Both the position numbers and the translations under genes were made by a program. This document shows, piece by piece, positions 4,365 through 36,934 of a DNA stretch of 64,000 bases. Position 1 is the first letter of the stretch; each line of letters begins with the position of its first letter. The notes beneath the pieces were generated by a model. That model saw only the letters and a list, made by a program, of their open reading frames with translations, did not search any database and had not been told where the DNA came from. This DNA comes from an uncultured Ignavibacteriales bacterium (GTDB lineage Bacteria; Zixibacteria; MSB-5A5; GN15; FEB-12), in contig CAYNEO010000011.1 in assembly GCA_964396245.1 (NCBI GenBank), forward strand, positions 410 through 64,409, read 5' to 3'.

Positions 4365-4366
4365 CG

Positions 4367-5719
4367 TTATTTGGGATAGCTGGGGGGTGACGAAGACTCG
4401 CTGGCGCTCTGAATCCCGACGGCAATTTCAGGGAGAATTCCCATCGTAACATAGATTGGCCTTACCAGGGCCCTCAAGGCAGGTAATCTTCGCGCAAAGA
4501 CAGCCGCCCCGAGCACGCAAGCCATGCCGCCTGCAAAAACTGTCCACGGAGCACCGATCCTGCTTGCCAGGTATCCCGCGAGCAAACTGCCGAGCGGAGT
4601 CATCCCGACAAATGCCATAGTGTAAAGGCTCATAACTCTTCCCCGCTTGTCATCCTCGACTATTGTCTGCAGCAGGGTATTGCTTGACGCCATCTGTACC
4701 ATCTGGCCGAAACCGGTGAAGAGCATAAGGATGAGTGAAAGCGACAGGACCTGTGAAAACGAGAAGGCGGCCAGCCCGAGTCCAAAAATGGCGGCGGCGA
4801 TAGGAATCCATTTCCCGAGCCCCAGCAGAGTTTTCCTCGCGGCCAGGTACAGTGCCCCCACCAGTGCTCCAACGCCGGCGGCGCCCATCAGGAAACCGAG
4901 CGCGCTGGGGCCGCCGTTGAGGACATCTTTGGCGAAAATCGGCATGAGCACGCTGTAAGGCATCCCCATAATACTTATCACGGCCAGCATCAATAGAATA
5001 GTCCGAATCGGTTCGAATTTGGCGGCGTAACGTATCCCCTCACTGAATTCCTGCCAGACTCTCGACTCACGTTTCCTGGCAGGTCTCGGCGCGAGTTTCA
5101 TCAGCAGCAGGGAGACGATGACGGCCAGGTAGCTGAGCCCGTTAATGAGGAAGCAGATTCCTTCTCCCACCGCTCCGATCAGGATACCCGCTGCGGAGGG
5201 GCCGAGTAAACGGGCGCCATTGACCATGGATGAATTCAATGCAATGGCGTTTCCGAGATCCTGTTTCTCGCCGATCATCTCTATCATGAACGACTGCCTG
5301 GTAGGCATGTCGAGAGAGTTGATCATGCCCAGGACGACGCTGAGGACAATGATATGCCAGACCTGGATCAGGTCGGTTAGGACGAGAAATGACAGCACGA
5401 AAGCCTGAATCATTGCCAGGGTCTGAGTCAGGATGAGTAACCGGTGACGATTCCAGCGATCCGCAAGAACGCCGGCAATTGGCGCCAGGACCAGAACCGG
5501 AATCTGACTGGAGAAGCTCACCAGGCCCAACAAGAATGCCGAATGAGTAAGGTCGTAAACCAGCCAGCTCAGGGCGATACGCTGCATCCAGGTACCGGTG
5601 AGCGAGATACTCTGGCCGCCAAAGAACAGGCGAAAGTTCCGGTGACGCAGAGCCCGTATAATCGATTTCAGTCTTGGGGCCGCCTTGCGTTCTTCGGTAT
5701 TAGTTTTCATACTATCCAT
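4367..5719 (-). CDS. MFS transporter (MFS_3-like)
   Basis: ALRHRNFRLFF start, GVLADRWNRHRLL motif A, about 12 TM; start 5719 or 5710. Confidence 0.9.
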   Translation of the reverse strand: MDSMKTNTEERKAAPRLKSIIRALRHRNFRLFFGGQSISLTGTWMQRIALSWLVYDLTHSAFLLGLVSFSSQIPVLVLAPIAGVLADRWNRHRLLILTQTLAMIQAFVLSFLVLTDLIQVWHIIVLSVVLGMINSLDMPTRQSFMIEMIGEKQDLGNAIALNSSMVNGARLLGPSAAGILIGAVGEGICFLINGLSYLAVIVSLLLMKLAPRPARKRESRVWQEFSEGIRYAAKFEPIRTILLMLAVISIMGMPYSVLMPIFAKDVLNGGPSALGFLMGAAGVGALVGALYLAARKTLLGLGKWIPIAAAIFGLGLAAFSFSQVLSLSLILMLFTGFGQMVQMASSNTLLQTIVEDDKRGRVMSLYTMAFVGMTPLGSLLAGYLASRIGAPWTVFAGGMACVLGAAVFARRLPALRALVRPIYVTMGILPEIAVGIQSASESSSPPSYPK

Positions 5720-10417: not shown

Positions 10418-11476
10418 GTGACATTCAGAAGCATTGCCTTGCTGAGTGCTGTTGTCATCGCTATTCCGATGACTCAGTGCTCTCGCAATCCTGTCGATTC
10501 CGGGCAGGATATGCAGGCAGGCGACTCCATTCAGAAGAAGCAGCCGCCAAGCGAGGAGGCCGCCAACTGCCTTTCGTTTCCGGTAATCTGGTCGGACGGC
10601 ATAACCAAACCGCTGCGCGGCACGTTCGGACAAACGACGTTCGACGGTCCGTACACATATATGGACGACCCGGCGACCTCGGAAACTGACCTCATTCAAT
10701 GGTACTATCAGGGGGACCCGCTGAATGAATGGCAAGCCGAAAGCCGGAATCAAATGCTGGAGCAGCGAGGCCGGCTAAATGTATCCCGTGTCGACTGGGG
10801 CGACAACCTCGAGGCGAAATCATGGGATGAAAGCTCAGTCGTCCGTACCGAAGTGGTGCTGTTCCAGGATCTGGCTCCCGATGACGTTATGACGGGCTAC
10901 ACGATGCTCAAGTTGAACGACGCCAGCGGCCTGGACGAAATTTGGGGGACCAACACCCAAACCAAACAAAGCACCGAGGCTACGGTCTACTCGGACTGCG
11001 CCCGGCTGACTATTCAGAAACTGGCTTTGCCGCGAGACGATCCTAGTCTCACCCTTACGTGGAATGCGACGACGGGCGAATGGGAAGGGAACGTGGCCGC
11101 CACTATCTTCAATGGCGGCGTGTGGGGAGCGGCCGACGGACCCGGGTTCTACTCGGCGGAGATCAATGTCCAGGGGAAACTGATTTATGGGTACAACTGG
11201 TATGTTTCCGACATCGAGAATGCACCCGGAGACTATCGACTCACGTTCAGCCTGGACAACACCGATGCCAGTCCCCCGCTGAATACCTACTTCACCGACG
11301 CCACAACCATCGTGTTGCCGGCCGAAGAGGTTGTGACAGTGACCGCCGAAGAGGGTTCCGACAGTGGTGAACCCGACCTGGGCGGTGGTGTAGCCGTAGT
11401 GGCGCCCGAATACAATCTCACTTATATCGATGTTCGAATTCTTCCAAAGTCAGGAGGTGGCGGAAAACGTCGGTAA
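10418..11476 (+). CDS. hypothetical lipoprotein, acidic beta-rich
   Basis: AGGAGG 6 nt before GTG 10418; signal ending ...MTQC; long ORF followed by a terminator. Confidence 0.75.
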   Translation: MTFRSIALLSAVVIAIPMTQCSRNPVDSGQDMQAGDSIQKKQPPSEEAANCLSFPVIWSDGITKPLRGTFGQTTFDGPYTYMDDPATSETDLIQWYYQGDPLNEWQAESRNQMLEQRGRLNVSRVDWGDNLEAKSWDESSVVRTEVVLFQDLAPDDVMTGYTMLKLNDASGLDEIWGTNTQTKQSTEATVYSDCARLTIQKLALPRDDPSLTLTWNATTGEWEGNVAATIFNGGVWGAADGPGFYSAEINVQGKLIYGYNWYVSDIENAPGDYRLTFSLDNTDASPPLNTYFTDATTIVLPAEEVVTVTAEEGSDSGEPDLGGGVAVVAPEYNLTYIDVRILPKSGGGGKRR

Positions 11477-11539
11477 TTAACGTCCGGAGCCGTTAGTCCT
11501 GAGCGGTTCTACGTCAAGTCAAAGGAAATCATGCAGTTG

Positions 11540-11578
11540 AGAGACGGGTCGGTTCACGCCTGCCCGTCTCTTTCTTTT
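11540..11578 (+). terminator. intrinsic terminator
   Basis: agagacggg...cccgtctct stem followed by ttctttt. Confidence 0.75.
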
Positions 11579-11722
11579 CCCGGAGGCGCGGTGCGCCCCC
11601 GGTCTGTACTGCCCTATCCGTTTAGTACACAATGCGATAGCATCTCAGAACGGGAGTTAGGCGGCGGAAAAGCGGCTATGAAGAGGCTTTTATGATAGTT
11701 GCGGGATCAGGCGAAAAATAGA

Positions 11723-11751
11723 TTGACAGGTCGATTTATCTATATTACCTT
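11723..11751 (+). promoter_or_regulatory. sigma70-type promoter of the HTH regulator
   Basis: TTGACA(11723-28)-17 nt-TACCTT(11746-51). Confidence 0.6.
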
Positions 11752-11752
11752 A

Positions 11753-11779
11753 GAGAAAACTCAGAAAATCCAGAAAATG
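11753..11779 (+). repeat. three 9-bp head-to-tail direct repeats
   Basis: gagaaaact / cagaaaatc / cagaaaatg. Confidence 0.7.
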
Positions 11780-11789
11780 CCGAACTCGC

Positions 11790-12536
11790 ATGGATCGAAG
11801 GTATTATACCACAAGTCAGGCCGCTGATCTCCTGGCCGTTTCTTCGGACACAGTGCTGAAGTGGGTCAGGCAGGGTAAGATATCGTCGTATCGGACCCCG
11901 GGCGGCCATGCCCGCATACCCCGGGAGGCCGTCGAGCGACTGCTTCCGGTGCAGATCAACGGACAATCATTGCCCAGCGCCGAGCCTCCGGCCTACCACT
12001 ACTGCTGGGAGTTCTATGCCCCGGAGGGCCGGACGAAACCGGAATGCCACGACTGTATGGTGTTTCGCAGTCGCGCCCGTCGCTGTTACGAGTTGAGAGA
12101 GATCTCCGAGGAGTTCGGCTACCTGACGCCGCATTGTCACTCCGAATGTGAAGATTGTGAATATTACGGCATCGTTCGGGACGAGGGGACACAGGTTCTC
12201 ATTGTCACGCGCAACAGCAAACTTCGCGACAGCCTGACGGAGGAGGCCGAAGGCGGCGACGTTGTTATGCAGTTCGCGGACAGCGAATACCAGTGTGCGT
12301 CGATACTCCATGCCTTTCGGCCGGACTATGTCGTGCTTGATTGCGCGCTTGGCCGGAATCGGACGCAGGAGATGTGCCGTTACCTCTCGACCGACGAGCG
12401 CATTCCGTTCACCAAGATCATCCTGACGTCGCGAAGCGCGGATGTCGAAGATTGTTTTGACGGCCGGATATTCGGATGGATCAAGAAGCCGTTTACGTTC
12501 CAGCAGCTGAGATGTTGTCTCGGTCAGGCGGAATAA
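11790..12536 (+). CDS. excisionase-type (HTH_17/MerR-like) regulator with Cys-rich domain and atypical receiver domain
   Basis: YYTTSQAADLLAVSSDTVLKWVRQGKI...TPGGHARI; CWEF-CxxC-C-CxxxCxxC; VVLD and KKPF receiver remnants. Confidence 0.85.
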   Translation: MDRRYYTTSQAADLLAVSSDTVLKWVRQGKISSYRTPGGHARIPREAVERLLPVQINGQSLPSAEPPAYHYCWEFYAPEGRTKPECHDCMVFRSRARRCYELREISEEFGYLTPHCHSECEDCEYYGIVRDEGTQVLIVTRNSKLRDSLTEEAEGGDVVMQFADSEYQCASILHAFRPDYVVLDCALGRNRTQEMCRYLSTDERIPFTKIILTSRSADVEDCFDGRIFGWIKKPFTFQQLRCCLGQAE

Positions 12537-12626
12537 AGCGGCCGGTACAGATAGACATATCTCGCAGGAGAAAATAACGGCTGACCCGGTGGACATCGCT
12601 GGCAGGCTCGCCCACCGGGCCGGGTA

Positions 12627-12747
12627 GGACTGAAAACGCAACTCTTTACAGAAGCAATTTCCAGACCTGGTATAGCTATAGTATAAATCAGGCGCGTCCT
12701 GTCAAGCGACAATTGTCGCCGGGCCGCGAATCCCGCGTTTTCAGTCC
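12627..12747. repeat. perfect 13-bp inverted repeats enclosing a 95-bp promoter-like segment
   Basis: ggactgaaaacgc (12627-39) / gcgttttcagtcc (12735-47); internal palindrome gcgacaattgtcgc (12706-19). Confidence 0.85.
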
Positions 12748-12804
12748 ACCCTCAGCCACAATCACAGTCCTGACATAATGTTTCTGCTCCACAGGAGACT
12801 GCAC

Positions 12805-13344
12805 ATGTCCGATTCAATCACCATCAACAGCCGCACCTTGCGGGTCTTTGTCGACGACATAACCATGCTGGATGTCGACGCCTTTGTATTTTATGCCCGG
12901 TCGGAACTGACGCTGGGCGCGGGCTTCGGTACGGCCATCAGTGTTAGAGGCGGTCCGTCGATTCAGGAGGAACTGAACGGCAGCGGGCCGCTTGGCGTGA
13001 CCGGGGTTATGACAACCGCAGCCGGCGACCTGAAGGCCGACTTTATCATTCATGCCGTGGGCCCCGCCTTTATGGAAGAGGACACGGAAGGCAAGTTGCG
13101 AACGACAGTTCTCAATGCGTTGAGGGAAGCCGACCGCAAAGGTATCAAACGACTGGCCTTCCCGGCCATGGGCGCCGGCTTCTACTGCGTGCCGCTGGAC
13201 CTTTGCGCCGATGTCATGATCGGCACCATTTCCGACTATCTCGGGTCCGAGGATACCGGTCTCACCGAGGTAATAATCAGTGTGCTGGATAAACGTGAAT
13301 TGAAGCCGTTCCGGGAACGTCTCGGGCAACCGGCGACAGTGTAA
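12805..13344 (+). CDS. macrodomain protein, NAAN motif degenerate
   Basis: DDIT, GAGFGTAI..RGG, IIHAVGP, LAFPAMGAG; AGGAG before ATG 12805. Confidence 0.88.
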   Translation: MSDSITINSRTLRVFVDDITMLDVDAFVFYARSELTLGAGFGTAISVRGGPSIQEELNGSGPLGVTGVMTTAAGDLKADFIIHAVGPAFMEEDTEGKLRTTVLNALREADRKGIKRLAFPAMGAGFYCVPLDLCADVMIGTISDYLGSEDTGLTEVIISVLDKRELKPFRERLGQPATV

Positions 13345-13355
13345 AGGAGAGCGAC

Positions 13356-14039
13356 ATGAGTGAGTTACTGCATTTCTCGGAACACACGTTGCAGGAGGCG
13401 GCCCTGCTGTTCATGGGGGCCGTGTATGTGACGCGCCTCTACTGGATAACCCGGCGCAAAGCGGGGCGCGAACGGCAGGCGCCGACAGGTACCGGAAGTC
13501 TCGATCCAAAGGGCTCCATAGTATATTCGTGGGCTAATGTAGCCATGCCCTGGAGCATGGAGAGCACCCGCAGGAAATGGTTTCTATATGTCCAGTTTGT
13601 CGCGTTCCATCTCGGGGTGGTGGCGGCGATCGGCTTGTCGTTCGTAATTCCATACGGACCGGGAATCCTGGAAACTCCCGGGGTCGTTCCGGTCCTCCAG
13701 ATCGTGATTGGAGCGGCATTCCTGGTGGGTGTCGGACGCATAATCCGGCGTATCGCCAGCAAATACATGCGGGCGATAAGTTCTCCCGATGATTATTTTT
13801 CCCTGGTACTGCTGACTGCCTGGTTCGCATTCGCATTCCTGGCGGTCCCGAACGACACCTCCGGCGGCGAATGGCCGTTGCTGACGTTCTTCTTACTCAC
13901 GGCATTTTTCCTTGTGTACGTTCCGTTCAGCAAAATATCGCATTACCTGTATTACCCGTTCACACGCTACTACCTGGGCAAGACACTGGGACGTCGCGGG
14001 GTTTACCCCGTGAGGAAAGCCCGTCAACATGCCGGTTGA
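13356..14039 (+). CDS. NarI/DsrM/TmcC-family membrane cytochrome b subunit
   Basis: 5 TM; RRI...R.ISSPDDY and VPFSKISH family motifs. Confidence 0.85.
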   Translation: MSELLHFSEHTLQEAALLFMGAVYVTRLYWITRRKAGRERQAPTGTGSLDPKGSIVYSWANVAMPWSMESTRRKWFLYVQFVAFHLGVVAAIGLSFVIPYGPGILETPGVVPVLQIVIGAAFLVGVGRIIRRIASKYMRAISSPDDYFSLVLLTAWFAFAFLAVPNDTSGGEWPLLTFFLLTAFFLVYVPFSKISHYLYYPFTRYYLGKTLGRRGVYPVRKARQHAG

Positions 14040-14083
14040 CACAGGACACCGACATATCGCCAAGGCACTGAAGGAGTGAAGGA

Positions 14084-15868
14084 ATGAATAACAGTTCTCG
14101 ATCATACAAGGCCCAGCGGGTTATCGACCGCATGGACAAGAAACTCAACCGCCAGATGCTGACGTCGCTGCTTGCCTGTGTCCACTGCGGCATGTGCACC
14201 GACGCCTGCCACTACGTGCTCGCCAACCCGGGCGACCCGACTTACGCGCCATCGTACAAGGCGGACCAGATTCGGAAATTCTTCAAACGGCATTACGACT
14301 GGACCGGCCGCGTGCTGCCGTGGTGGGTCAAAGCCAAGAGCCTTTATACCGACGAGGAACTCGAGGAACTGAAAGACACGGTGTTCGGCAAATGCACTAA
14401 CTGTCGCCGGTGTACGCTGAATTGCCCGATGGGGGTGGACTATGCGACTTTCAATCGCATGGCGCGCGGTCTTCTCGTTTCGGTCGGGATTATGCCGGAA
14501 GGCGTCGCGGTCGTGAGCAAAGACCAGTGGGAAATCGGAAACCAGATGGGGGTGTTGAAAGAAGATTATATCGATACGCTGGAGTGGCTCTCGGACGAGC
14601 TCGAAGAGGAATTCGGCGATCCCCGGGCGAGAATACCGATCGATCTGGAAAACGCCAATATCGTGTACTCGATCAATCCGCGGGAAGTGAAGTACGATCC
14701 GAGGACGATATCCGACGCCGCGAGGATATTCTACCTTGCCGGCGAAAGCTGGACCATGCCGAGTGAAGGCTGGGACATGACAAACTTCGGGTTGTTCTCC
14801 GGCGACGATGACCTCGGCGGCGCTGTCGGACGCCGGCTGTTCGAGAAGGTTTCGGAGCTTGGCGGCAAGAAGCTGGTGATTTCAGAATGTGGTCACGGGT
14901 ATCGGTCGACACGTTGTGAGGCGCAGAACTGGGCTGGATGGGACGTCGATTTTGAGATGGAATCATCAGTCATCACCATGTTGCGATACATCAGCGAGGG
15001 ACAAATCACGGTGGACAAGTCGAAGAACCAGTCGCCGGTGACGTTCCATGACTCGTGCAACAATGCCCGGAGCTGCGGATTGACCGAGGAGCCGCGCCAG
15101 TTGCTCAACCTGGTAGTCGAGGATTTCCGGGAGATGTATCCAAACCGGGCGGAGAACTATTGCTGCACCGGCGGCGGCGGCGCCATGTCGATGTCGGAGT
15201 ATACGCCGCGCCGGTTGAAATCGGCGAAGATCAAAGCCGACCAGTTGAAGGCGACCGGCGCCGAATACGTTTGTACGTCGTGCCACAACTGCGTCGACGG
15301 ATTGACGGATCTCATCCGCCACTACAAACTTGGCATGAAAGTGACGCAACTGGTGAACCTGGTTGCCGAAGCTCTCGTCGTGCCGGAGGTCGTGGCGGTA
15401 CCGTCGGTCGAGATTCCCGAGGTCGCCGCGGCCGGTGTCCTCGCCGGACATTCGGTACTGGTTGTCGATGACGAGCCCGATTTCGTGGTGTACGTGTCGA
15501 CGCTTCTGGAAGACAACGGCGCCGCGGTACATCGTGCATTCAGCGGTGAAGAAGCACTGCGTCTTGCCGCGGAGCACCAACCGGATCTGATTACCCTCGA
15601 CATTTCCATGCCGGGGATGTCCGGCCAGGAAGTGTTCGAGCGACTGCGTGAGGATAAGTCATTGCGGGAGGTTCCGATCTGTATCATCACCGGCCAGCCG
15701 GAGCTCCGCAAACTCATATATGACCGACCCCACCGGGCGCCCGAAGGATTCCTCAGTAAACCGATCGATGAAGAACAGCTCATACTCAATGTTCGGAAAG
15801 TGCTGAAAATCCCGCATGAGAAGGAATCGCCCAAAACCGAGTCCTCGGAAGCGAAAAAAGGAGTGTGA
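14084..15868 (+). CDS. DsrK/HmcF/HdrD-like CCG Fe-S oxidoreductase fused to a C-terminal receiver domain
   Basis: CVHCGMCTDAC, CTNCRRCTLNCP, SECGHG, FHDSC...CCTGGGG...CTSCHNC; then LVVDDE...ITLD...IITG...SKP. Confidence 0.92.
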   Translation: MNNSSRSYKAQRVIDRMDKKLNRQMLTSLLACVHCGMCTDACHYVLANPGDPTYAPSYKADQIRKFFKRHYDWTGRVLPWWVKAKSLYTDEELEELKDTVFGKCTNCRRCTLNCPMGVDYATFNRMARGLLVSVGIMPEGVAVVSKDQWEIGNQMGVLKEDYIDTLEWLSDELEEEFGDPRARIPIDLENANIVYSINPREVKYDPRTISDAARIFYLAGESWTMPSEGWDMTNFGLFSGDDDLGGAVGRRLFEKVSELGGKKLVISECGHGYRSTRCEAQNWAGWDVDFEMESSVITMLRYISEGQITVDKSKNQSPVTFHDSCNNARSCGLTEEPRQLLNLVVEDFREMYPNRAENYCCTGGGGAMSMSEYTPRRLKSAKIKADQLKATGAEYVCTSCHNCVDGLTDLIRHYKLGMKVTQLVNLVAEALVVPEVVAVPSVEIPEVAAAGVLAGHSVLVVDDEPDFVVYVSTLLEDNGAAVHRAFSGEEALRLAAEHQPDLITLDISMPGMSGQEVFERLREDKSLREVPICIITGQPELRKLIYDRPHRAPEGFLSKPIDEEQLILNVRKVLKIPHEKESPKTESSEAKKGV

Positions 15869-15872
15869 TCAC

Positions 15873-17369
15873 GTGAACGACCAGTTCCAAAGCTACTTTG
15901 ACGCGATGCCGTGCTATCTGACGGTTCAGGACCGTCAGTTGCGCATGATACACGCAAACCAGCGGTTCAGGAGTGACTTCGGCGAGACCGAGGGGCGGCA
16001 CTGTTACCAGGTATACAAGCGCCGGCCGGAGAAATGCGAAGTCTGTCCGGTGGAACGGTCGTTTCAGGACGGTCATCCCCACCAGAGCCGCGAGGAAGTG
16101 ACGACGCTGGACGGCCGCACGGTGGCGGTGCTGGTCAACACAACGCCCATCTATGACGCCCGGGGGAATATCTCGGGCGTCCTGGAAATGTCAACGGATG
16201 TCACCGACATGAGCAGGCTGGAACAGCAACTCCGCGACAGCCAGGAGCGCTATCGGCTGCTCTTCGAGGAGGTCCCGTGTTTCATTTCCAGCCAGGACCG
16301 AGAGTTGCGCATCGTGGAGGCCAACCGGCTGCACCGCGAGACATTCGGTACCGAGTACGGCTGTAAATGCTACAAAGTGTACAAGCACCGCGACGAGGCC
16401 TGCGTTCCGTGCGTGGTGAAGCAGACTTTTGATGACGGACAGGTGCATATCCACGAGGAACTGGTCACCTCGAATGACGGCCGACCGATCAATGTCATGG
16501 TGACGACCGCACCTATGAAGAATCGAAACGGTGAGATTGATCTCGTGATCGAAATGAGCGCAGATATTACTCGCCTGCGGGAGTTACAGTCCCAGCTCTC
16601 CTCTATCGGGTTGATCATCAGCAGTATCTCACACGATCTCAAGGGATTCCTGAGCGGGCTCGACGGCGGGATATATATGGTCAATTCGGGGCTCAGGCGG
16701 GATGACCGGGGACGTATCGAAACAGGCTGGGAAATGGTAACGCGGAATGTCGGTCACATTCGACGGACGGTTCTGGATATTCTCTATTTCAGCAAGGACC
16801 GCAGGCCGGAGCCGGTCGAGACCGATGTGTCCGACCTGGTGGCGGCAGTGGTTGAACAGATGCAGACGAGGGCAAAAGACCACGGGGTAGTTATTACAAG
16901 CGAAATAGATCAATCGGCCGGCAGTTTTCAGGTCGACCCTCGAGCGATACGCTCGCTTCTCACCAATTTGCTCGACAACGCGCTGGACGCCTGCCGCCTG
17001 AATACTCAGCAGCATGACAATGTGATCATGGTTTCGGTCAGGGGTGATCCTGACAACGTACAGATAGAGATTTCCGACAATGGTTTGGGGATGCCGCAGG
17101 AAGTCCGTGAAAAGGCGTTCACCCTGTTCTTCTCCTCGAAGGGCACGGGCGGTACCGGATTGGGGTTGTTCATCGCCAACAAGATTGCAAAAACCCATGG
17201 CGGACGAATAGACCTCGACTCCGAGATAGGTCGCGGGTCGCGTTTCACGGTCACCCTTCCCCGAATCGCCGCGGTTACCGACGATTTGGAGAGCTCGGAC
17301 AACGGCAACGGAGAGCGTGAGACCGCAATTGACGAAACAGAACGGCGCAAAATTGCAGACGATATATGA
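15873..17369 (+). CDS. cytoplasmic PAS-PAS histidine kinase
   Basis: two tandem PAS; ISHDLK H-box, NLLDNA, DNGLG, FFSSKG, GTGLGL; no TM; AGGAG before GTG 15873. Confidence 0.92.
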   Translation: MNDQFQSYFDAMPCYLTVQDRQLRMIHANQRFRSDFGETEGRHCYQVYKRRPEKCEVCPVERSFQDGHPHQSREEVTTLDGRTVAVLVNTTPIYDARGNISGVLEMSTDVTDMSRLEQQLRDSQERYRLLFEEVPCFISSQDRELRIVEANRLHRETFGTEYGCKCYKVYKHRDEACVPCVVKQTFDDGQVHIHEELVTSNDGRPINVMVTTAPMKNRNGEIDLVIEMSADITRLRELQSQLSSIGLIISSISHDLKGFLSGLDGGIYMVNSGLRRDDRGRIETGWEMVTRNVGHIRRTVLDILYFSKDRRPEPVETDVSDLVAAVVEQMQTRAKDHGVVITSEIDQSAGSFQVDPRAIRSLLTNLLDNALDACRLNTQQHDNVIMVSVRGDPDNVQIEISDNGLGMPQEVREKAFTLFFSSKGTGGTGLGLFIANKIAKTHGGRIDLDSEIGRGSRFTVTLPRIAAVTDDLESSDNGNGERETAIDETERRKIADDI

Positions 17370-17411
17370 AACCGGCCGCATGCAAAGGCATCAGGGCAAG
17401 AAAGGCGGATT

Positions 17412-17804
17412 GTGATGAAGAAAAAGGTGCTGATTGTTGATGATGAAGCCGATATGAGAACGTACTTCGAGTCGCTTCTCTCCGAAAACGGCTTCGAGAC
17501 CGCAACCGCGTCCGACGGCGACATCGGCTTTGAAACGGCCCGGACATTTCAGCCGGATGTGATCACGCTGGATATTATCATGGAGCGGGAGACCGGGGTG
17601 AAGTTCTACCGCAAAGTGCTGAAAGACGACTGTCTGAAAAACACACCGGTCATTATCCTGAGCGGTGTGGGCAGCTACAAGGCGCTCTTCGGACGTGATC
17701 ACGCCACCATGACGAAACCGTTTGCGTTCCTGGAGAAACCGGTAGACACGGATGAATTGATTGACAAGATCAACGAGGCCATAGCGTTGAAAGAAAAAGT
17801 CTGA
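17412..17804 (+). CDS. single-domain response regulator
   Basis: LIVDDE, ITLD, ILSG, EKP. Confidence 0.93.
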   Translation: MMKKKVLIVDDEADMRTYFESLLSENGFETATASDGDIGFETARTFQPDVITLDIIMERETGVKFYRKVLKDDCLKNTPVIILSGVGSYKALFGRDHATMTKPFAFLEKPVDTDELIDKINEAIALKEKV

Positions 17805-17832
17805 CCGCAGGCGGTAATTCTCCGAGTTATGT

Positions 17833-17868
17833 AACAAAGGCGGGCCTGATCGGCCCGCCTCGTTTGTT
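17833..17868. terminator. bidirectional terminator
   Basis: aggcgggcc-tgatc-ggcccgcct stem flanked by aacaa/tttgtt, between convergent genes. Confidence 0.75.
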
Positions 17869-17882
17869 CCCTGATGCCGCGT

Positions 17883-20800
17883 TTACTTCAGCAGTATCAT
17901 CTTCCTCGTCACTGTGTAGTCACCGGCCTCGATCCGATAGAGATATACGCCGCTGGCATTGTCCCCGGCATTCCATTGCAGGGTGTGTTCGCCAGCTTCG
18001 TAATAACTGTCGGCAAGTCGCGCTACCTCCTGTCCCAGGATATTGTAGACACTGACCACAACACGGGACGCGGTTGGCAGACTGAAGTCGATATTGGTTG
18101 TCGGGTTGAACGGATTCGGATAGTTCTGCGATACCGAGAACTCCTCGGGAAGAAGCATCTCGGGCCTGCCTTCCTGCAACACCAGGCCGCCGGGAACGGC
18201 GCTGGCTCCTGACAGACCGCGGAATTCAATCTGGTCGATATAGACGTCGTCGGCATCGCCGCTGGCGTCACACACAAACCGAATCTTCGCGTTAGTCGGG
18301 AAGTTGTATTCGCTTCGGTCGATTGTCACAACGGCATGATACCACGTACTGTTGTTGAAATCGATTCCACGGGCATAGGCGGCTACTGTCCGCCAGGCCG
18401 AGCCGTCGTAGTACTGGATCCAGAAATCCTCGCCATACTCCATGCTGATGGCCACGAAATAGAAATCGACCTCGAGCACGTTGAAGCCGGTTACGTTGTA
18501 ACCATAGGTATGGTAGAATGACGAGGCAACGCCGCTGTTGTCCTGAATGTCAGCTGCGTTGTAACCCTCCCATGCGTAGTAGTAGCCGGTATACAGGAAC
18601 ATGTCCGCGCCGCCGTCGGTATAGTTGCCCATGCCGCTTTCGAAGTCATCATAGGTTATGACTGCCGAGGAGCTGGGTTCGGACACCGTGATGTATCCCG
18701 TCTTGGTCTCGGTGTCGCTTCCGAAGACGTTTGTCGCGGTCAGCGACACCGTGTATGTGCCGGGGTTGGCGTACGAGTGTGAAGGATTCTGTGCCGTGGA
18801 ACTCCCGCCGTCGCCGAAATTCCAACTCCAGCTGGTCGGATTGCCGCCCGACAGGTCGGTGAAGCTGACGCTGAGCGGGGCCGGCCCGGAAGTCGGGTTG
18901 GCCGAGAAATCGGCCACCGGCGGCGTCTCGTTGGATACGACACTGATATCATCGAAGGCCATACCATCGGTCGAGATACTATAGTTGTCGTACTGCTGGA
19001 ATTTGACGACAAAGGTGCTCGTCAGGCTTAAGCCGTTTGCCGATGCCAGTTGATCGATATCGAGGTCTATCTCTCGGTAGGTGGTGCTCCCTCCGGTCAG
19101 ACTGTACACTTTGACAAACGACGATCCACCGTCATCGGAGAAGAAAACCCCATCCTGGGTATGATCTTCGTCGCCGAATTCCTTCCACCAGAACGACAGC
19201 GCGACGTCGCTCTTGCCGGACAGATTGAGCCGCAGCCAGGCTTCGTTCTGGGCATACAGGCCGCCGTTGTAGTTGTCATCCATGGTCATATGGTAGGAAC
19301 CTGAATGCGGTCCGTTGGCGGTGGTGATGAGGATGCGCCCTTCCGAGTTGCTGCTCTGCGTGAACCAGTACTGGTCAAAGGCTCCTGACTCGAAACCGGT
19401 CGAGTATGGCAGAGTGGCATAGGTTGCCGAGGGTGTGCTCACCGTGATGTAGTTCGACTTTATCTCGACATCACTGCCGCACGAGTTGGTTGCAGTCAGG
19501 GTGACGGAAAACGTTCCCTGTGATGTGTACGTGTGGGACGGGTTCTGCGCGGTCGAGGCACCGCCGTCGCCGAAGCTCCAACTCCACGATGTCGCGCCGG
19601 TTGACTGGTCAGTGAAATTCACCGTCAGGGGTGTATTGCCGGAGGTTGGACTGCCGGTGAAGTTCGCCACCGGGTAAGTGCAGCCTCCGGTCGTGATGTA
19701 ATTCGTCCGGGTGTATGTATCCGAACCGCAGGAACTGGTCGCGGTCAACCGAACCGTGAACGTTCCGACGCTCGTGTACGTGTGGCTCGGATTGGTCGCT
19801 GTCGACGTTCCGCCGTCACCGAAGTCCCACGAGTACGAAGTCGCACCGCTGGAACTGTTGGTGAAATATACCGTCAGCGGAGCATCTCCGGAAGTCGGTG
19901 AACCGCTGAATCCGGCGGTCGGACCGGCATTCACGGTAATGTAGTTGGTCTTGGTCTCCGAGTCACTGCCGGCGGCGTTGGTGACGGTCAGCGAGACTGT
20001 GTACGACCCGGACGAGCTGAACGTATGGCTCGGGTTCTGCGCAGTCGATGTTCCACCATCGCCGAAGTTCCAGCTCCAGCTTGTCGGGCTGCCTGACGAG
20101 AGGTCGGTGAAGCTCACCGACAGCGGCGAGCAGCCGGAAGTAGGCGAACCGCTGAAATTGGCAACCGGCGCCGCAGGGCCGGTATTCACGGCGTTGTAGG
20201 CGTTGACACGTCCGGCGCCCATCCTGCCGATGTATTGTGAGGACAGGTAGGCGTCGATATTGTCAGCGCTGGAATAGAGCTGGTTTTTCACCTGTGAGGC
20301 GGTCCAGCCCGGGTTGTGCGACCAGATCAATGCCCCGACGCCGGCTGTCAGCGGCGTCGCCATGGAAGTGCCGCTCAGCGACGCCCAGTAGTTGGTGTTC
20401 GGGTCGGTGTGATCGTGGTACGTGCTGTAGATGTTGTTGCCGGGCGCACAGATGTCGACCCAGGTCCCGTAGGTCGTGAAGCTGGCGGCGTTGTCGTTTT
20501 CATCGGTGGCGGCCACCGACACACAATCGCCACGGCCATTGAGGTAGTCGGCCGTGGTTCCGCCGTCGTTGCCGGCCGCGACAAACACGATACCGCCGCT
20601 GGCAATGAAGTAGTCGACCGCTGCGCCGAGACCGCCGCTGTTGGACGAACCCCAGCTACAGGACGCGATCTTTGCCCCCTTGGCGGCGGCATAGTAGAAA
20701 GCCGAGGCAGCGCAATCCATTTGCACGACGCCGTACTCCTGGCCGCCGTAATTGTAAGAATAGCCCATCCGCAGCGGCATCAGCTTGATACCGTTGCCGG

Positions 20801-21710
20801 TGACAGCCTGCGAGCCGTTGCCCCAGCCGCCGGCGATCCCGCACATGCCGTAACCATCGTTGGTCAGCATGGCGATGATACCGGCCGTGTGGGTGCCGTG
20901 ACCGTTGAAGTCACGCGGGTCGTTGTCCTCGGTGTTGCAGTCTTCGCCGGTCCAGCAGCTCGTGACGCCGTCGATGAAATCCCAACCGATCCAGTCATCG
21001 ACATAGCCGTTGCCGTCGTCGTCATATCCGGATGTGCCGTTGAGCTCGGCGGTATTGATCCACATATTGCCGCGCGAGGCGCCGGGATTGGACGGAGAGG
21101 CATTGGCGCCGCCAAGATCGGGATGATAGTACCGGGTACCGGAGTCGAGCAGGGCCACGATTACGGACGTGCTGCCGGTCTCGATGTTCCAGGCTTCCGG
21201 AGCATCGATGTCGTGGTCGCCGGCCTGATTGAGGTACCACTGATAGCTGTAATAGCCGTCGTTCGGTGTGGCGTAGAGGGCGTGGATGCCGTTCTTTTCC
21301 ACGGATTCGACGGCCGGGTCAGCCTGGTAGGCGGCCATGACTTCGTCGAGATCCGCGTTCGGGTCAAACCGGACAACGAAATGGTGCGATAAATCAAAGA
21401 ATCTGCCATTGATCATTTCGGGTTTGGCTCCCTTGAACATCTGATTCATCTCGGTGACCTGGTATTGCCGGGCAATAGCATCGAGGGACGGAATTTCCAG
21501 GGACATCAGCCCGCTGCGCAGCCGCGCCTTTTCGACCCTCTCCGGGGTCACACCGCTGGTTGCTTTGAAGTTCACAACGAGTTCACCCGGAGCCCAGCCG
21601 AGGAATGAAGGTCCATAGGGTCGGTCGACGACCTTCACATCCGGATTACCGGCCTGCACAAGCACCGGGATGAGGAGAACCATTGTGAAGAAGATTACCA
21701 GCTTCTTCAT
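17883..21710 (-). CDS. S8 subtilisin-like protease with 4 PKD domains, two jelly-roll-like domains and a T9SS-type C-terminal sorting domain
   Basis: LLDSG / HGTHTAG / SGTSMA triad; four WxFGDG...NPSHT repeats; QNYPNPFNP tail; AGGAGG RBS. Confidence 0.95.
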   Translation of the reverse strand: MKKLVIFFTMVLLIPVLVQAGNPDVKVVDRPYGPSFLGWAPGELVVNFKATSGVTPERVEKARLRSGLMSLEIPSLDAIARQYQVTEMNQMFKGAKPEMINGRFFDLSHHFVVRFDPNADLDEVMAAYQADPAVESVEKNGIHALYATPNDGYYSYQWYLNQAGDHDIDAPEAWNIETGSTSVIVALLDSGTRYYHPDLGGANASPSNPGASRGNMWINTAELNGTSGYDDDGNGYVDDWIGWDFIDGVTSCWTGEDCNTEDNDPRDFNGHGTHTAGIIAMLTNDGYGMCGIAGGWGNGSQAVTGNGIKLMPLRMGYSYNYGGQEYGVVQMDCAASAFYYAAAKGAKIASCSWGSSNSGGLGAAVDYFIASGGIVFVAAGNDGGTTADYLNGRGDCVSVAATDENDNAASFTTYGTWVDICAPGNNIYSTYHDHTDPNTNYWASLSGTSMATPLTAGVGALIWSHNPGWTASQVKNQLYSSADNIDAYLSSQYIGRMGAGRVNAYNAVNTGPAAPVANFSGSPTSGCSPLSVSFTDLSSGSPTSWSWNFGDGGTSTAQNPSHTFSSSGSYTVSLTVTNAAGSDSETKTNYITVNAGPTAGFSGSPTSGDAPLTVYFTNSSSGATSYSWDFGDGGTSTATNPSHTYTSVGTFTVRLTATSSCGSDTYTRTNYITTGGCTYPVANFTGSPTSGNTPLTVNFTDQSTGATSWSWSFGDGGASTAQNPSHTYTSQGTFSVTLTATNSCGSDVEIKSNYITVSTPSATYATLPYSTGFESGAFDQYWFTQSSNSEGRILITTANGPHSGSYHMTMDDNYNGGLYAQNEAWLRLNLSGKSDVALSFWWKEFGDEDHTQDGVFFSDDGGSSFVKVYSLTGGSTTYREIDLDIDQLASANGLSLTSTFVVKFQQYDNYSISTDGMAFDDISVVSNETPPVADFSANPTSGPAPLSVSFTDLSGGNPTSWSWNFGDGGSSTAQNPSHSYANPGTYTVSLTATNVFGSDTETKTGYITVSEPSSSAVITYDDFESGMGNYTDGGADMFLYTGYYYAWEGYNAADIQDNSGVASSFYHTYGYNVTGFNVLEVDFYFVAISMEYGEDFWIQYYDGSAWRTVAAYARGIDFNNSTWYHAVVTIDRSEYNFPTNAKIRFVCDASGDADDVYIDQIEFRGLSGASAVPGGLVLQEGRPEMLLPEEFSVSQNYPNPFNPTTNIDFSLPTASRVVVSVYNILGQEVARLADSYYEAGEHTLQWNAGDNASGVYLYRIEAGDYTVTRKMILLK

Positions 21711-22020: not shown

Positions 22021-24315
22021 TCAACCGCTCGTAACATCCTGGTCGACCCAGATTTTCGCCAGCAGCCGCTCAAACCGCGGATCCGAACGCAGGTGGTCTG
22101 CATACGGCGCGTGCAGAAGCGACGGCATCCAGGAATCACGCTGCTCGCAGGCATCTTCAAACCGATCAAAGGCTTCATCCAGCCGGCCCAACCCGGAAAG
22201 TACAAGCGCCGGGTACATGGGCGGGACATGCCGATGTTCAGCCGCAGCGCTCAGGCGGTCGAGAACCTGACTTGCCTCCTCAGTTCGGCCCGCGAGACCG
22301 CACGCCATGCCCAGATGGCCCAGAGCGAGAGGGCTCTCGGCTGAGACAGCCACCAGATGTTGGAACACGTCGATGGATTCGTCCCATTTCCCTATCGCCG
22401 ACAGGGTAAGCCCCTTGAACAGGTGCGCCAGAAAGAATTCCGGCTCCAGTTCCAGCGTGGCGTGAATTTGCGCCAACGCTTCATCGTATCTGCGGCCCCA
22501 GTAATAGGCCAATCCCAGCACCGCGTTCAGGATCAAAGAAACAGGATCCAGTTCCAGACCGCGCCTGACCTGGGCGAGGCCTTCATCGTAGCGGCCCAGG
22601 ACCCCCAATAACAACGCAAAGAACTCTCTCAGGTCGGAGTAATTGGGGTTCAGGTTGACCGCGAGGCGGAATTCCCTTTCGGCAGCGACGAAATCCCAGC
22701 TGTGGAAGGTATGGAGCCAGCCAAGCGCAGCGTGCGCTTCGGCGAGAGAGTTGTCAATCGCGAGGGCAGTCTCCACCGCCTTCTTTGATACGGGATAACA
22801 CTCCATGGGAGAAAGATAGAGATGACCGAGGATGTTGTAGGCATCCGCTACGCCAACGTACGCCAGGGCGTATTCGGGGTCGCGCGCGATGGCGCGCTGG
22901 AAAAACTCTATCGATTTCTGGAGGCCGCCCTGGAAACGTCTATTCCAGAAGTAGCGGCCCTGAAGGTACAGTTTGTACGCCTCCTGATCCTCGGTATACC
23001 GTTTTGTCAGCCGCGTTTTCTCCTGTGTCAGCAGGCGGACTTTCAAACGATCCACTATCGTCAGGGCGATTTCATCCTGGATCGAAAAGATGTCCTGCAT
23101 ATTGCGGTCATATTTCTCCGACCAGAGATGGTAACCATCGGCCACGTTAATAAGCTGGGTGGTGATACGTATCCGGCCGTTTGCCTTTCTGACGCTGCCT
23201 TCAAGTACGGTGGCCACATTCAGTTTGCGGCCGATCTCCCTGATATCCTGTTCTTTGCCACGGAAGGAGAACGCCGATGTTCGCGCTACCACACGCAGGC
23301 CATCGACCTGGGCCAACGCGTTGATGATCTCCTCGGCCATGCCGTCGCAAAAGTAGTCCTGGGCGCGGTCATCACTCAGGTTAGTGAATGGCAGGACGGC
23401 GATTGACGGCTTGGATGGCGAGTCGGCTTCCGGCGCGGTTGAACGGGTCTCCAGTTCGACTCTTACCTCCCGAAGATCGGACAGCATCTCGGCGGCTGTC
23501 TGGTACCTCTCGGCGGGTTCCTTTTCGAGCGCCTTATCGATGACTGCCTGAAGTTTCAATGGAAGGTCAGTGATGTATTCGTCCAACCGCGGCACGGCTT
23601 CCTGGACAATAGCCAGCAGGGTGGCGGCTTCATAGTCGCGCAGGAAGGGCGATTTACCGGTGAGCATTTCGAAAAGCACGATGCCAAGCGAAAAGAGATC
23701 GGAACGGGAATCAGCCGACTCTCCCCTGATCTGTTCCGGCGACATGTATCCGATTGTTCCGGAAATCGAGCCATCATGGCTGACCGGTTCGTATCCGCGG
23801 ATTGTGGCCAATCCGAAGTCGAGTAATTTGCAGTTCCCCTTACGGTCCACCTTGATATTCGATGGTTTGATGTCGCGGTGTACGACCCCTATGGAGTGAG
23901 CTTCGTGCAATCCGGCCGCAAGCTGTGTGGCGCATTCCAGGGCGCACTGCAGGGAGACCTTCCGCGCCTTGATCATCTGGCGCAGGGTTTCGCCCTCGAC
24001 ATATTCCATAGCAAGGAAAAGCCGCCCCTGTTCTTCGCCGATTTCGTAAACCGTGACTATGTTGGGATGGCTCAACCGGGCAGCCGCTCGCGCCTCGCGT
24101 GTAAAGCGGGCCCGGACCTCCGGGTCGGAAGCATACGCCTCCGGCAGGAACTTCAGCACGACGCTCCGATGAAGACTGATGTCCTCGGCCAGATAAACAT
24201 CACCCATACCACCGGTTTCGATATGCTCCCGGATACGATAATGCCCAATTACAGATTGCGCATCGCGTTGAAATCTCGATTGGGTGATGTCATCAGCGTC
24301 GTCGTTTTTCGACAA
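22021..24315 (-). CDS. Ser/Thr protein kinase with TolB-like domain and TPR repeats
   Basis: GGMGDVY, VLK, HRDIKPSN, DFG, YMSPEQ; SIAVLPF...YFCDG; TPRs; TTG start at 24315 chosen, uncertain. Confidence 0.92.
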   Translation of the reverse strand: MSKNDDADDITQSRFQRDAQSVIGHYRIREHIETGGMGDVYLAEDISLHRSVVLKFLPEAYASDPEVRARFTREARAAARLSHPNIVTVYEIGEEQGRLFLAMEYVEGETLRQMIKARKVSLQCALECATQLAAGLHEAHSIGVVHRDIKPSNIKVDRKGNCKLLDFGLATIRGYEPVSHDGSISGTIGYMSPEQIRGESADSRSDLFSLGIVLFEMLTGKSPFLRDYEAATLLAIVQEAVPRLDEYITDLPLKLQAVIDKALEKEPAERYQTAAEMLSDLREVRVELETRSTAPEADSPSKPSIAVLPFTNLSDDRAQDYFCDGMAEEIINALAQVDGLRVVARTSAFSFRGKEQDIREIGRKLNVATVLEGSVRKANGRIRITTQLINVADGYHLWSEKYDRNMQDIFSIQDEIALTIVDRLKVRLLTQEKTRLTKRYTEDQEAYKLYLQGRYFWNRRFQGGLQKSIEFFQRAIARDPEYALAYVGVADAYNILGHLYLSPMECYPVSKKAVETALAIDNSLAEAHAALGWLHTFHSWDFVAAEREFRLAVNLNPNYSDLREFFALLLGVLGRYDEGLAQVRRGLELDPVSLILNAVLGLAYYWGRRYDEALAQIHATLELEPEFFLAHLFKGLTLSAIGKWDESIDVFQHLVAVSAESPLALGHLGMACGLAGRTEEASQVLDRLSAAAEHRHVPPMYPALVLSGLGRLDEAFDRFEDACEQRDSWMPSLLHAPYADHLRSDPRFERLLAKIWVDQDVTSG

Positions 24316-24603
24316 TACAAACACCCCCACGTCAGAAATCCAGAGAACCGCACATGTTTGAATGGCATTATATAATACACTTCGCCCACTTGAAACGCAA
24401 CAACTAACGACTGAGTCATGCGCGCCGGCGACCGGTCGATTTCTCCACGGGGAACAAAGCGGGCCTGGGATCAATTCTAGTGAAAGGCGAGCGGCCCGGG
24501 ACCTCAAGTCCGATTCGGGTTGCGAACCGGTTCATACATAATCTTCTTGCCGTTTCTCCAATTTGAAAAAACGAATCCACTCGCAGACTCTGGAGAGTGA
24601 TTT

Positions 24604-32887: not shown

Positions 32888-33043
32888 TCGGTAGTGGAGG
32901 CCGTCACATTTCGATCATGACCAAGTCCGCGCGGTTGTTCTTGCATCAGACTATGGCACAGGCGATATTTGTACGGGCACGATTCAGGGGCTGATAGCAT
33001 ACAGCTGATTGATTATTCCCCATCGGTGCGAATGGAGGAAGCG

Positions 33044-36741: not shown

Positions 36742-36934
36742 AGGGGCAGCCTGTTCACTTTGCCGGAGGGCATTGGAGTCGACTTGAGACGTGGCTGAGT
36801 TGAGCGGGGTTACCAGAGCTTCCTGGTTAGCTGTTCTTTGCGGAAGCGGTTGACGCAGGTGTCGGGCTTCCGGTTGCTTCGATCACGGTCCTCACGCAAA
36901 GGGCGGGGTGTATGGTCTAGAGGATGGTATAGCA

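Follow-up and report, generated by a model that had tools for sequence, protein, structure and literature searches.

An HmcF/DsrK-like iron-sulfur subunit fused to a response-regulator receiver domain in a conserved gene cassette

DsrK, HmcF, and TmcB are the catalytic ends of membrane complexes that feed electrons to cytoplasmic sulfur chemistry. To our knowledge, discussion of how they are regulated has been confined to transcription, the case found being that of rrf1/rrf2 of the hmc operon. A gene from an uncultured Ignavibacteriales bacterium (placed in Zixibacteria by GTDB; assembly GCA_964396245.1, contig CAYNEO010000011.1) raises the question of whether such a subunit can be switched by phosphorylation or can itself take part in signaling. 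In the 64,000-nucleotide (nt) stretch of this contig analyzed here (positions 410 to 64,409; hereafter, the window), one open reading frame (ORF) joins an iron-sulfur (Fe-S) subunit of this class to a receiver (REC) domain. A preliminary description, made from the sequence alone, had read this gene as a DsrK-like oxidoreductase of the CCG type carrying an intact receiver and had proposed it as an enzyme that serves as the direct output of a two-component system. The gene and its parts are as follows (positions are those of the window).

14084-15868 (+): gene for the fused protein of 594 amino acids (aa), an uninterrupted ORF with an ATG start; HmcF/TmcB/DsrK-like Fe-S subunit (residues 1-437), linker, and C-terminal receiver
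14177-14209 (+): first canonical [4Fe-4S] motif, C32xxC35xxC38xxxC42, read in the translation
14393-14425 (+): second canonical [4Fe-4S] motif, C104xxC107xxC110xxxC114, read in the translation
14882-14896 (+): SECGH motif (S267-E-C269-G-H271-G), read in the translation
15038-15292 (+): CCG domain with the five-cysteine motif C325...C360 C361 (T362)...C400xxC403 (Pfam CCG, 3.6e-11)
15374-15451 (+): Pro/Val/Ala/Glu-rich linker, residues 431-456, with the sequence VVPEVVAVPSVEIPEVAAAGVLAGHS
15455-15793 (+): receiver domain, residues 458-570 (Pfam Response_reg, 4.9e-22)

All elements that the preliminary description had picked out (two ferredoxin motifs, SECGHG, HDSC, and CCTGGGG, the linker, and an intact receiver) are present in the translation, and the Pfam domains confirm them: Fer4_8 covers residues 29 to 118 (1.1e-10), the CCG domain covers residues 319 to 403 (43.4 bits against a cutoff of 20.6), and Response_reg reaches 78.6 bits against a gathering threshold of 30.2. 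Residues 11 to 437 align end to end with the NCBIfam profiles of HmcF (5e-98), TmcB (1e-92), and DsrK (2.5e-71). The group to which these three proteins belong is defined by one CXnCCGXnCX2C motif, for a noncubane [4Fe-4S] cluster, and a (T/G)ECGH motif, whose cysteine has been put forward as the catalytic one of DsrK, HmcF, and TmcB (PMC10861901). By cryo-electron microscopy, DsrK has a single noncubane cluster with Cys329 and His331 (A. fulgidus) beside it, and DsrC's C-terminal arm enters the DsrK pocket at this cluster (10.64898/2026.08.25.746951). The five-cysteine set of the noncubane cluster is complete in the fused protein (C325, C360, C361, C400, and C403), its first three members lying in H322-D-S-C325 (HDSC) and C360-C361-T362-GGGG (residues 360 to 366), while the SECGH motif starts with Ser, versus Thr or Gly in the published motif. 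Judged by motif, C269 and H271 would be the equivalents of the catalytic-motif residues Cys329 and His331 of DsrK.

The label "DsrK-like" therefore holds for the group hallmarks, all of which are present, but the best profiles are HmcF and TmcB, and the protein stays under all NCBIfam equivalog cutoffs (HmcF, 328.8 versus 750; TmcB, 310.8 versus 735; and DsrK, 240.7 versus 400). None of the HmcA-D, TmcA/D, or DsrJOP-type partners occurs in the conserved cassette that surrounds the gene (see below). Because every equivalog cutoff failed and the Hmc, Tmc, and DsrMKJOP partner subunits are missing, the protein should be called HmcF/DsrK-like, not HmcF, TmcB, or DsrK. A second ORF of 594 aa in the window (29499-31283) encodes an M16 peptidase unrelated to the fused gene, so the equal length is a coincidence.

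The receiver retains a full active site, i.e., D462, D463, the phospho-acceptor D506, T536, and K559. An AlphaFold2 (AF2) model gives this domain the alternating strand/helix pattern of a receiver, with a predicted local distance difference test score (pLDDT) of ~85 to 90, and Foldseek matches it in the Protein Data Bank (PDB) to the receivers of RR468, DivK, CheY, and PhoB (TM-score of ~0.88, normalized to the target). The corresponding matches of the Fe-S part are EtfD and LutA. Over the whole protein, the mean pLDDT is 65; the 160 N-terminal residues, for which the alignment is shallow, lie below 50, as does the linker at residues 437 to 449. By domain and active-site criteria, the predicted protein is a response regulator, here partnered with a multicluster Fe-S reductase of respiratory type; equivalently, as read from its residues, one may call it a subunit of the DsrK family that carries its own phospho-switch.

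A fusion of this kind could in principle arise from misassembly, a frameshift, or gene calling, and the preliminary description had listed an assembly artifact among the findings that would refute it. In a search of 5.8 billion proteins, the best 120 clusters (74 to 100% identity; 566 to 606 aa) all contain PF02754 together with PF00072; those that are named are mostly Zixibacteria metagenome-assembled genomes (MAGs), and a 97%-identical one is labeled Candidatus Zixiibacteriota (record labels, unverified). A scan of one genome per species found at least 568 stretches encoding relatives, of which the best 80 loci (71 to 84% identity), all uncultured, were analyzed. The fused gene is present in all 80, with a median stop-to-stop ORF of 592 aa, and is cut by a contig end in two of them (L061 and L066); among them are a complete chromosome record of 3.83 Mb (CP070813.1) and a pair of contigs of ~4.5 Mb. 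A second search, seeded with a divergent fused protein (P0121; 53% identity), returned a receiver in 119 of the 120 best hits, whose labels include Deltaproteobacteria, Acidobacteria, Planctomycetota, Armatimonadetes, and Kapabacteria (MAG record labels, unverified). Both searches combined, CCG and REC occur together in 239 of the 240 best clusters. The 80 loci from independent assemblies and these 239 clusters refute an artifact, whose probability is practically nil, and the junction is real.

Conservation was assessed with 61 close and 119 divergent sequences (180 in total), which form two clades. The eight ferredoxin cysteines, C269, H271, C325, C360, C361, C400, C403, and D405 are essentially invariant in both. 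With all 120 close clusters counted alongside the 119 divergent ones, the motif cysteines, H271, and the Asp and Lys residues of the receiver are likewise invariant or almost so. Since all residues that define the DsrK/HmcF/TmcB group are kept, the receiver sits on an apparently working enzyme. Within the receiver, each clade retains D462, D463, D506, and K559 in at least 94% of its sequences; for T536 the figure is 82 to 95%. The switch position 556 is aromatic (F or Y) in the window protein, in the close-clade consensus, and in the commonest residue of the divergent clade. Helix alpha4 (PELRKLIYD) differs in the divergent clade; its 96% conservation in the window's clade suggests an interaction face under constraint. 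Conservation is lowest in the linker, which varies in both sequence and length. As far as alignments can tell, these patterns show both parts of the fused protein to be under purifying selection. Two further cysteines, C278 (nt 14915-14917) and C331 (nt 15074-15076), are invariant in, and private to, the window's clade: in the divergent fused clade, position 278 is mostly Trp and position 331 is Cys in only 41%, and both are replaced in the unfused relatives inspected. These two residues could be an additional redox pair or ligands.

The change from CCG to CCT that had been noted in the preliminary description is real and characterizes the family. In the window's clade, T362 does not vary, and T is also the commonest residue (67%) in the divergent clade, with S in three of the four divergent sequences read; CC(T/S)GG is found in all five fused proteins compared, versus CCGGG, i.e., G at this position, in all seven unfused relatives in which the motif was located. 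Full-length relatives above ~50% identity are all fused, and the nearest unfused ones are at most 45% identical (HMMER, 1.84 billion cluster representatives). Over the Fe-S part, fused proteins share 56 to 70% identity among themselves and at most 49% with any unfused relative. Together with the motif difference, this split in the alignments fits one old fusion. The receivers are only ~35% identical between the clades, i.e., far more diverged than the Fe-S parts, and receiver replacement is therefore possible. One protein of 436 aa without a receiver (P0322) was considered as an unfused variant in the fused clade and was rejected; its C terminus is unrelated sequence by a contig end and its CCSGG is damaged, and it looks like a broken copy.

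The fused family is thus large, widespread, conserved, and already in databases under generic names ("response regulator" at NCBI and "Fe-S oxidoreductase/CheY-like" at JGI), and it is uncharacterized. A literature search returned no description of the fusion, nor of any CCG or HdrD-like protein with a receiver, and a search on DVU0258-0260 and TmcB returned only unrelated uses of "TMCB." The earlier statement that no characterized example is known in this family agrees with this search; the protein is nevertheless no one-off, and it has gene-neighbor precedents in Desulfovibrio (hmcF-rrf1-rrf2 and a CheY-like receiver gene).

What the fusion might do is best approached from its genomic setting. 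As predicted from gene positions, the order macro-domain protein, HmcE-like membrane subunit, HmcF::REC, PAS-PAS kinase, and single REC is a conserved operon order. Occurrence was counted by tblastn and ORF clustering over the 80 loci, across which none of the window genes outside the cassette recurs. In the window, the cassette genes follow one another closely. The genes and elements around the fused gene are as follows.

11790-12536 (+): HTH_17/excisionase-type regulator (Pfam HTH_17, 4.6e-13; Response_reg, 2.1e-7)
12778-13344 (+): macro-domain protein (Pfam Macro, 3.5e-21)
13356-14039 (+): HmcE/TmcC-like membrane subunit, 227 aa (weak NCBIfam matches: HmcE, 2.1e-12; TmcC, 1.4e-11)
15816-17369 (+): cytoplasmic PAS-PAS histidine kinase (Pfam PAS_4, HATPase_c)
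17412-17804 (+): single-domain receiver (Pfam Response_reg, 6.6e-20)
17838-17860 (+): terminator-like hairpin with a 9-bp stem and 8 G-C pairs, directly after the last cassette gene (consensus scan)

The gene for the HmcE-like subunit ends 44 nt upstream of the fused gene and is found in 76 to 78 of the 80 loci and in three further ones (L081, L083, and L084). Its product is hydrophobic over most of its length, with H85 and H196 as the only invariant His residues; the profile scores are weak (HmcE, 47 bits versus 275; TmcC, 44 versus 240), and there is no Pfam hit. On the other side of the fused gene, the likely start of the kinase is a GTG at 15873, 4 nt past the stop of the fused gene, with AAGGAG within the last codons of the latter; from this spacing, the kinase appears translationally coupled to the fused gene. 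It is encoded in 70 to 75 of the 80 loci, as well as in L081 and L083, and its adjacency suggests that it is the cognate partner of the fused receiver. The kinase lacks a membrane segment, and its invariant residues (68 sequences) are C63, C74, and C77 in the first PAS domain; C155, C185, C196, and C199 in the second; and the phospho-His H273. The two PAS domains share a C[YK]x[VI]Y...CxxC pattern, and a similar CWEFY...CxxC occurs in the upstream HTH protein; the shared cysteines may represent a recurring metal-, Fe-S-, or disulfide-sensing module.

A member of the single-receiver family lies, as a separate gene, 3' of the kinase in at least 53 of the 80 loci. The likeness between the fused receiver and the one at 17412, to which the preliminary description had drawn attention, exists but is unremarkable (34% identity over 122 aa, with a pairwise E of 2e-23 and ITLDI in common). 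The best NCBIfam match of both is NF045717 (DVU0259 family), at 79.8 bits for the fused and 111.2 bits for the single receiver, both below the cutoff of 160. These two are the only constant receiver-bearing proteins of the cassette, and no constant core member binds DNA. An Rfam scan of 11000-18500 gave one subthreshold match, to the archaeal C/D-box sRNA sR2 (17408-17459, +; 33.3 bits versus a gathering threshold of 42), which overlaps the start of the single-receiver gene and is taken as chance. Hairpin-type sites in the region do not exceed shuffled expectation.

The macro-domain gene, whose likely start is the ATG at 12805 preceded by AGGAG, stands before the HmcE-like gene in 71 of the 80 loci; it is absent from all three divergent-clade loci examined. 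The nearest solved structures are the PARP14 macro domain, Thermus TTHA0132, and macroH2A1.1. Because the residues aligned with VNAAN of TTHA0132 read VFYAR, the protein probably binds ADP-ribose instead of acting as a hydrolase. The cassette contains neither an ADP-ribosyltransferase nor a sirtuin gene.

Upstream of the cassette, three unrelated types of regulator occur, and many of the 80 loci show none within 6 kb. The HTH_17 type of the window is present in 27 of the 80 loci and in L081; its distance from the macro gene, measured in 25 loci, is 11 to 110 nt in most of them. It has a seven-cysteine region, CX13CX2CX9C plus CX3CX2C (C72, C86, C89, C99, C116, C120, and C123), invariant in all 27 homologs, and an atypical C-terminal receiver-like domain that keeps D184 and lacks the acidic DD pair; it looks like an Fe-S- or metal-binding transcription factor of a type not yet described. 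The second type, found in 14 loci, is a sigma54 enhancer-binding protein that also contains a Cys-bearing PAS domain and a domain of the low-molecular-weight phosphatase/ArsC-like kind. The third, an Rrf2-family protein, is encoded beside the cassette in 10 of the 80 loci (as 11 ORFs), as well as in L083 and L084. The noncoding gap before the macro gene of the window holds a perfect 14-bp palindrome, GCGACAATTGTCGC (12706-12719), flanked by perfect 13-nt inverted-repeat arms, GGACTGAAAACGC and GCGTTTTCAGTCC (12627-12639 and 12735-12747), 95 nt apart. As a conserved operator these repeats were rejected: they are not kept in 25 related loci, and the palindrome alone, with up to two mismatches, finds a match in 36 of 100 shuffles, i.e., not beyond chance.

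Several relatives place the cassette next to genes of sulfur metabolism. In a Zixibacteria MAG (by its label) whose fused protein is 79% identical (L002), a DsrC family gene (4110-4427; TIGR03342, 112.7 bits versus 53.5; two-Cys C terminus ...GACKVAGLAKPTGCV) lies directly upstream of the macro gene; L037 (2-256), likewise a Zixibacteria locus by its label, has the same DsrC sequence, and more distant versions occur in L051 and L078. The nearest relative without a receiver (P0128; 45% identity) carries, exactly at the receiver position, a DsrC/TusE-like domain without the two Cys. Together with the upstream dsrC genes, this domain is a Rosetta-stone clue in the gene record, and a hint, that HmcF-type proteins act on DsrC-type partners. 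About 10 loci have a DsrM-like gene within 6 kb, and in two of them (L028 and L033) the next gene is ~62% identical to that of the DsrK-like protein in L081. In the divergent loci L081/L082 (1-15749), the order is a sulfite-reductase-family gene, NarI-like plus DsrK-like genes (the DsrK-like protein at 312 bits, under the cutoff of 400), single REC, HTH_17, HmcE-like, HmcF::REC, PAS kinase, an OmpR-type regulator, ATP sulfurylase, AprB, and AprA; L083 reads HmcE-like, HmcF::REC, kinase, and Rrf2. These neighborhoods show, at the level of gene order, a recurrent link of the cassette to DsrC, DsrMK, Sat-Apr, and Rrf2 genes in some relatives. The single receiver gene of L081/L082 also directly follows the DsrK-like gene.

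The reading that we favor, with a confidence just short of even, is that of a quinol-linked thiol/sulfur reductase of DsrK type whose activity is gated, as in CheB, by phosphorylation from the adjacent kinase. The HmcE-like subunit and the cytoplasmic catalytic HmcF/DsrK-like subunit would form a two-subunit, membrane-attached redox module, in which the catalytic subunit would hold two cubane clusters, one noncubane cluster, and a catalytic cysteine and would be joined by a flexible linker to a phosphorylatable receiver. With its invariant Cys clusters, the soluble PAS-PAS kinase would sense a redox, thiol, or Fe-S signal in the cytoplasm and would phosphorylate D506 of the tethered receiver, as well as the free single receiver. 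Through its alpha4-beta5-alpha5 face, the tethered receiver would then dock onto or release the CCG catalytic domain, as the CheB receiver does with the esterase domain, thereby switching on or off the flow of electrons that links the quinone pool (or the membrane subunit) to a protein-bound disulfide, trisulfide, or persulfide in the cytoplasm, for which a DsrC/TusE-type protein would be the best substrate candidate. Within this scheme we infer phosphotransfer, the direction of control, the docking gate, and the identity of the substrate. The adjacency of the kinase, its predicted coupled start, and the invariant H273 speak for phospho-gating, as do the conserved residues of the enzyme part and of the receiver and the lack of a constant DNA-binding member in the core cassette. 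The linker, variable in sequence and modeled with low confidence, is compatible with repeated docking and undocking of a tethered domain, and the dsrC, DsrC-like, and dsrMK-sat-aprBA links in relatives are the lead to the substrate.

Several observations weigh against this reading. Neither dsrC, dsrMK, sat, aprBA, nor dsrAB-like genes are found in the 64-kb window, and no ORF in these 64 kb has two or more CxxCH motifs, i.e., encodes a multiheme cytochrome. The receiver is C-terminal to the enzyme, as in hybrid kinases and CheV, unlike in CheB or PleD. The AF2 model (mean pLDDT of 65) yields no usable interdomain information. The HmcE-like subunit has only two invariant His residues, so that a complete two-heme quinol-oxidizing subunit of NarI type is unsupported. 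Lastly, the surrounding regulators probably sense redox themselves, and a signaling device fits them equally well.

The preliminary notion of an enzyme as the direct output of a two-component system is fitted by the coupled and conserved kinase, but a sensor or feedback role is a serious rival to it, because the receiver is C-terminal, the kinase PAS domains are Cys-rich, and redox-type regulators flank the cassette. With the direction reversed, HmcE-HmcF would sense the quinone pool or the load of DsrC trisulfide or persulfide at the noncubane cluster and catalytic cysteine, and its redox state would set the phosphate acceptance or kinase binding of the receiver, i.e., a redox-gated phosphate sink or feedback inhibitor that tunes signaling through the free receiver. 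We regard this as possible but rather improbable. The C-terminal receiver is in line with hybrid kinases; the second, free receiver in the operon, with the same best-matching subfamily, makes branched or competing phosphotransfer possible; the cassette sits amid redox-type regulators without metabolic partner genes in the window; and an Fe-S-binding receiver that feeds back on its kinase has been reported (PMC7078487). However, the two Cys-rich PAS domains of the kinase could sense alone, and a fully kept catalytic machinery and the adjacency of dsrC are what a turnover enzyme needs, whereas a pure sensor could tolerate their loss. A combination of both directions, in which HmcE-HmcF::REC would be a new input and effector node of two-component signaling that reports quinone or protein-sulfur redox into the His-Asp relay and is itself switched by it, we hold to be doubtful. 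If it were true, respiratory electron flow would be under phosphorylation-based posttranslational control, and the macro protein could add ADP-ribose or an NAD-derived ligand as a second input.

Two further explanations give the receiver other roles. In one, the fused receiver would correspond to the receiver genes found after hmcF in Desulfovibrio and would leave catalysis alone: in its phosphorylated form it would bind or release a neighboring DNA-binding regulator (HTH_17, Rrf2, or the sigma54 activator) and so adjust how the cassette, or sulfur and respiratory genes, are expressed, in the manner of Rrf1. This would agree with the Rrf2-family genes beside the cassette in 10 of the 80 loci, L083, and L084, with the short distance (11 to 110 nt) between the HTH_17 and macro genes in most of the 25 loci, and with two published cases. 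In D. vulgaris, the regulators of hmc expression, rrf1 and rrf2, are located downstream of hmcF (Keon 1997, as cited in 10.1101/2023.11.02.564894); in D. hydrothermalis, a Usp gene and a CheY-like receiver gene adjoin hmcA-F and are induced together with it (PMC4162548). We consider such transcriptional feedback unlikely, since the upstream regulator is inconstant, comes in three unrelated types, and is missing within 6 kb at many loci, and since the regulator of the window carries its own receiver-like domain. Keon and colleagues reportedly identified the rrf1 product as a receiver-family protein in 1997. In the other explanation, the receiver is only a tether or scaffold by which the membrane complex would draw in the soluble kinase or the free receiver, phosphorylation of D506 having no regulatory role of its own; in one version, the CCG site would reduce or oxidize the PAS cysteines of the kinase. 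A kinase with invariant Cys clusters and no membrane segment is in keeping with this, the flexible linker is compatible with it, and the placement of a thiol/disulfide reductase beside a Cys-rich kinase is suggestive. The phospho-acceptor pocket, though, is kept in at least 94% of the sequences across two clades whose receivers are only ~35% identical, which argues for selection on phosphorylation itself and makes a mere tether very unlikely.

Other parts of the window contain signaling and redox genes apart from the cassette. A 1,275-aa ORF (17883-21710, -) converges on it and, by eye, looks like a secreted subtilisin-type protease with PKD-like repeats and a sorting-domain-like C-terminal tail. 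Two large Ser/Thr protein kinases with TPR repeats are encoded at 22021-24507 (-) and 47100-49373 (-) (Pkinase, 1.5e-47 and 1.1e-52). A second, unrelated two-component locus comprises a HAMP-HisKA-HATPase_c kinase (36908-38476, +) followed by receiver-like tblastn matches (38613-38933, 39090-39323, and 41313-41546). An aldo/keto reductase with a C-terminal 4Fe-4S dicluster domain is encoded at 32969-34279 (+) (Aldo_ket_red, 5e-31; Fer4_9, 6e-8).

In the fused family, a subunit of the DsrK/HmcF/TmcB class is covalently bound to a phospho-acceptor domain and has its own kinase in the operon. If gating by phosphorylation is true, the electron flow of this class would be wired to His-Asp signaling. 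The fusion would also account for the recurrent receiver genes beside hmc, tmc, and dsrMK and offers a single polypeptide for testing the link, while the DsrC-like domain of P0128 and the upstream dsrC genes are an independent genomic clue to DsrC-type substrates. Since relatives occur in at least 568 species-level genomes, the function would be common in anoxic sediments and groundwater.

Among known systems, the nearest solved structure of the Fe-S/CCG part is EtfD of M. smegmatis (PDB 9ojn; sequence E = 1.1e-9, Foldseek E = 1.9e-10), likewise a membrane-anchored CCG Fe-S protein tied to the quinone pool. EtfD differs in having its membrane and Fe-S parts in one chain and no receiver, and it is only 18% identical to the fused protein, with a poor structural overlap (TM-score of 0.35) that is due in part to the low-confidence N-terminal third of the model. 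The Fe-S single-domain receiver described in PMC7078487 also joins a receiver, an Fe-S centre, and histidine-kinase control; there, the receiver itself holds the cluster, whereas the clusters of the fused protein lie in a separate 437-aa enzyme domain and its receiver has a single, poorly conserved Cys. With DsrMK, the core of DsrMKJOP (the menaquinol:DsrC-trisulfide oxidoreductase of sulfate reducers and sulfur oxidizers), the module has in common the pairing of a membrane and a cytoplasmic Fe-S subunit, two cubane clusters, one five-Cys CCG motif, the Cys and His of xECGH, and, in some relatives, dsrC beside the cassette. A DsrK whose score lies above the cutoff (P0147) shares ~36% identity with the fused protein. 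DsrK, in contrast, has no receiver and reads CCG instead of CCT, and the window contains neither DsrJOP nor dsrAB and has an HmcE-like (227 aa), not DsrM-like, membrane subunit.

HmcE-HmcF and TmcC-TmcB are the best profile matches for both subunits of the window, and receiver and Rrf2-type genes are neighbors of Desulfovibrio hmcF as well as of cassettes of the window's type. DVU0259, the namesake of NF045717, adjoins tmc in D. vulgaris. In Desulfovibrio, however, the receiver is a separate gene and HmcEF is part of a six-subunit complex with a periplasmic multiheme cytochrome, whereas the receiver of the window is fused, the HmcA-D and TmcA/D genes are absent, and the scores are under half of the equivalog cutoffs. 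CheB, PleD, RpfG, and PorX resemble the fused protein in that enzyme and receiver are covalently joined, with a flexible linker between them; the CheB receiver, when unphosphorylated, blocks the active site. A literature search returned no characterized receiver linked to a multicluster Fe-S redox subunit of a membrane complex. The fused protein differs from the CheB type in two respects: the domain order is reversed, with the receiver at the C terminus, and the output is such a redox subunit.

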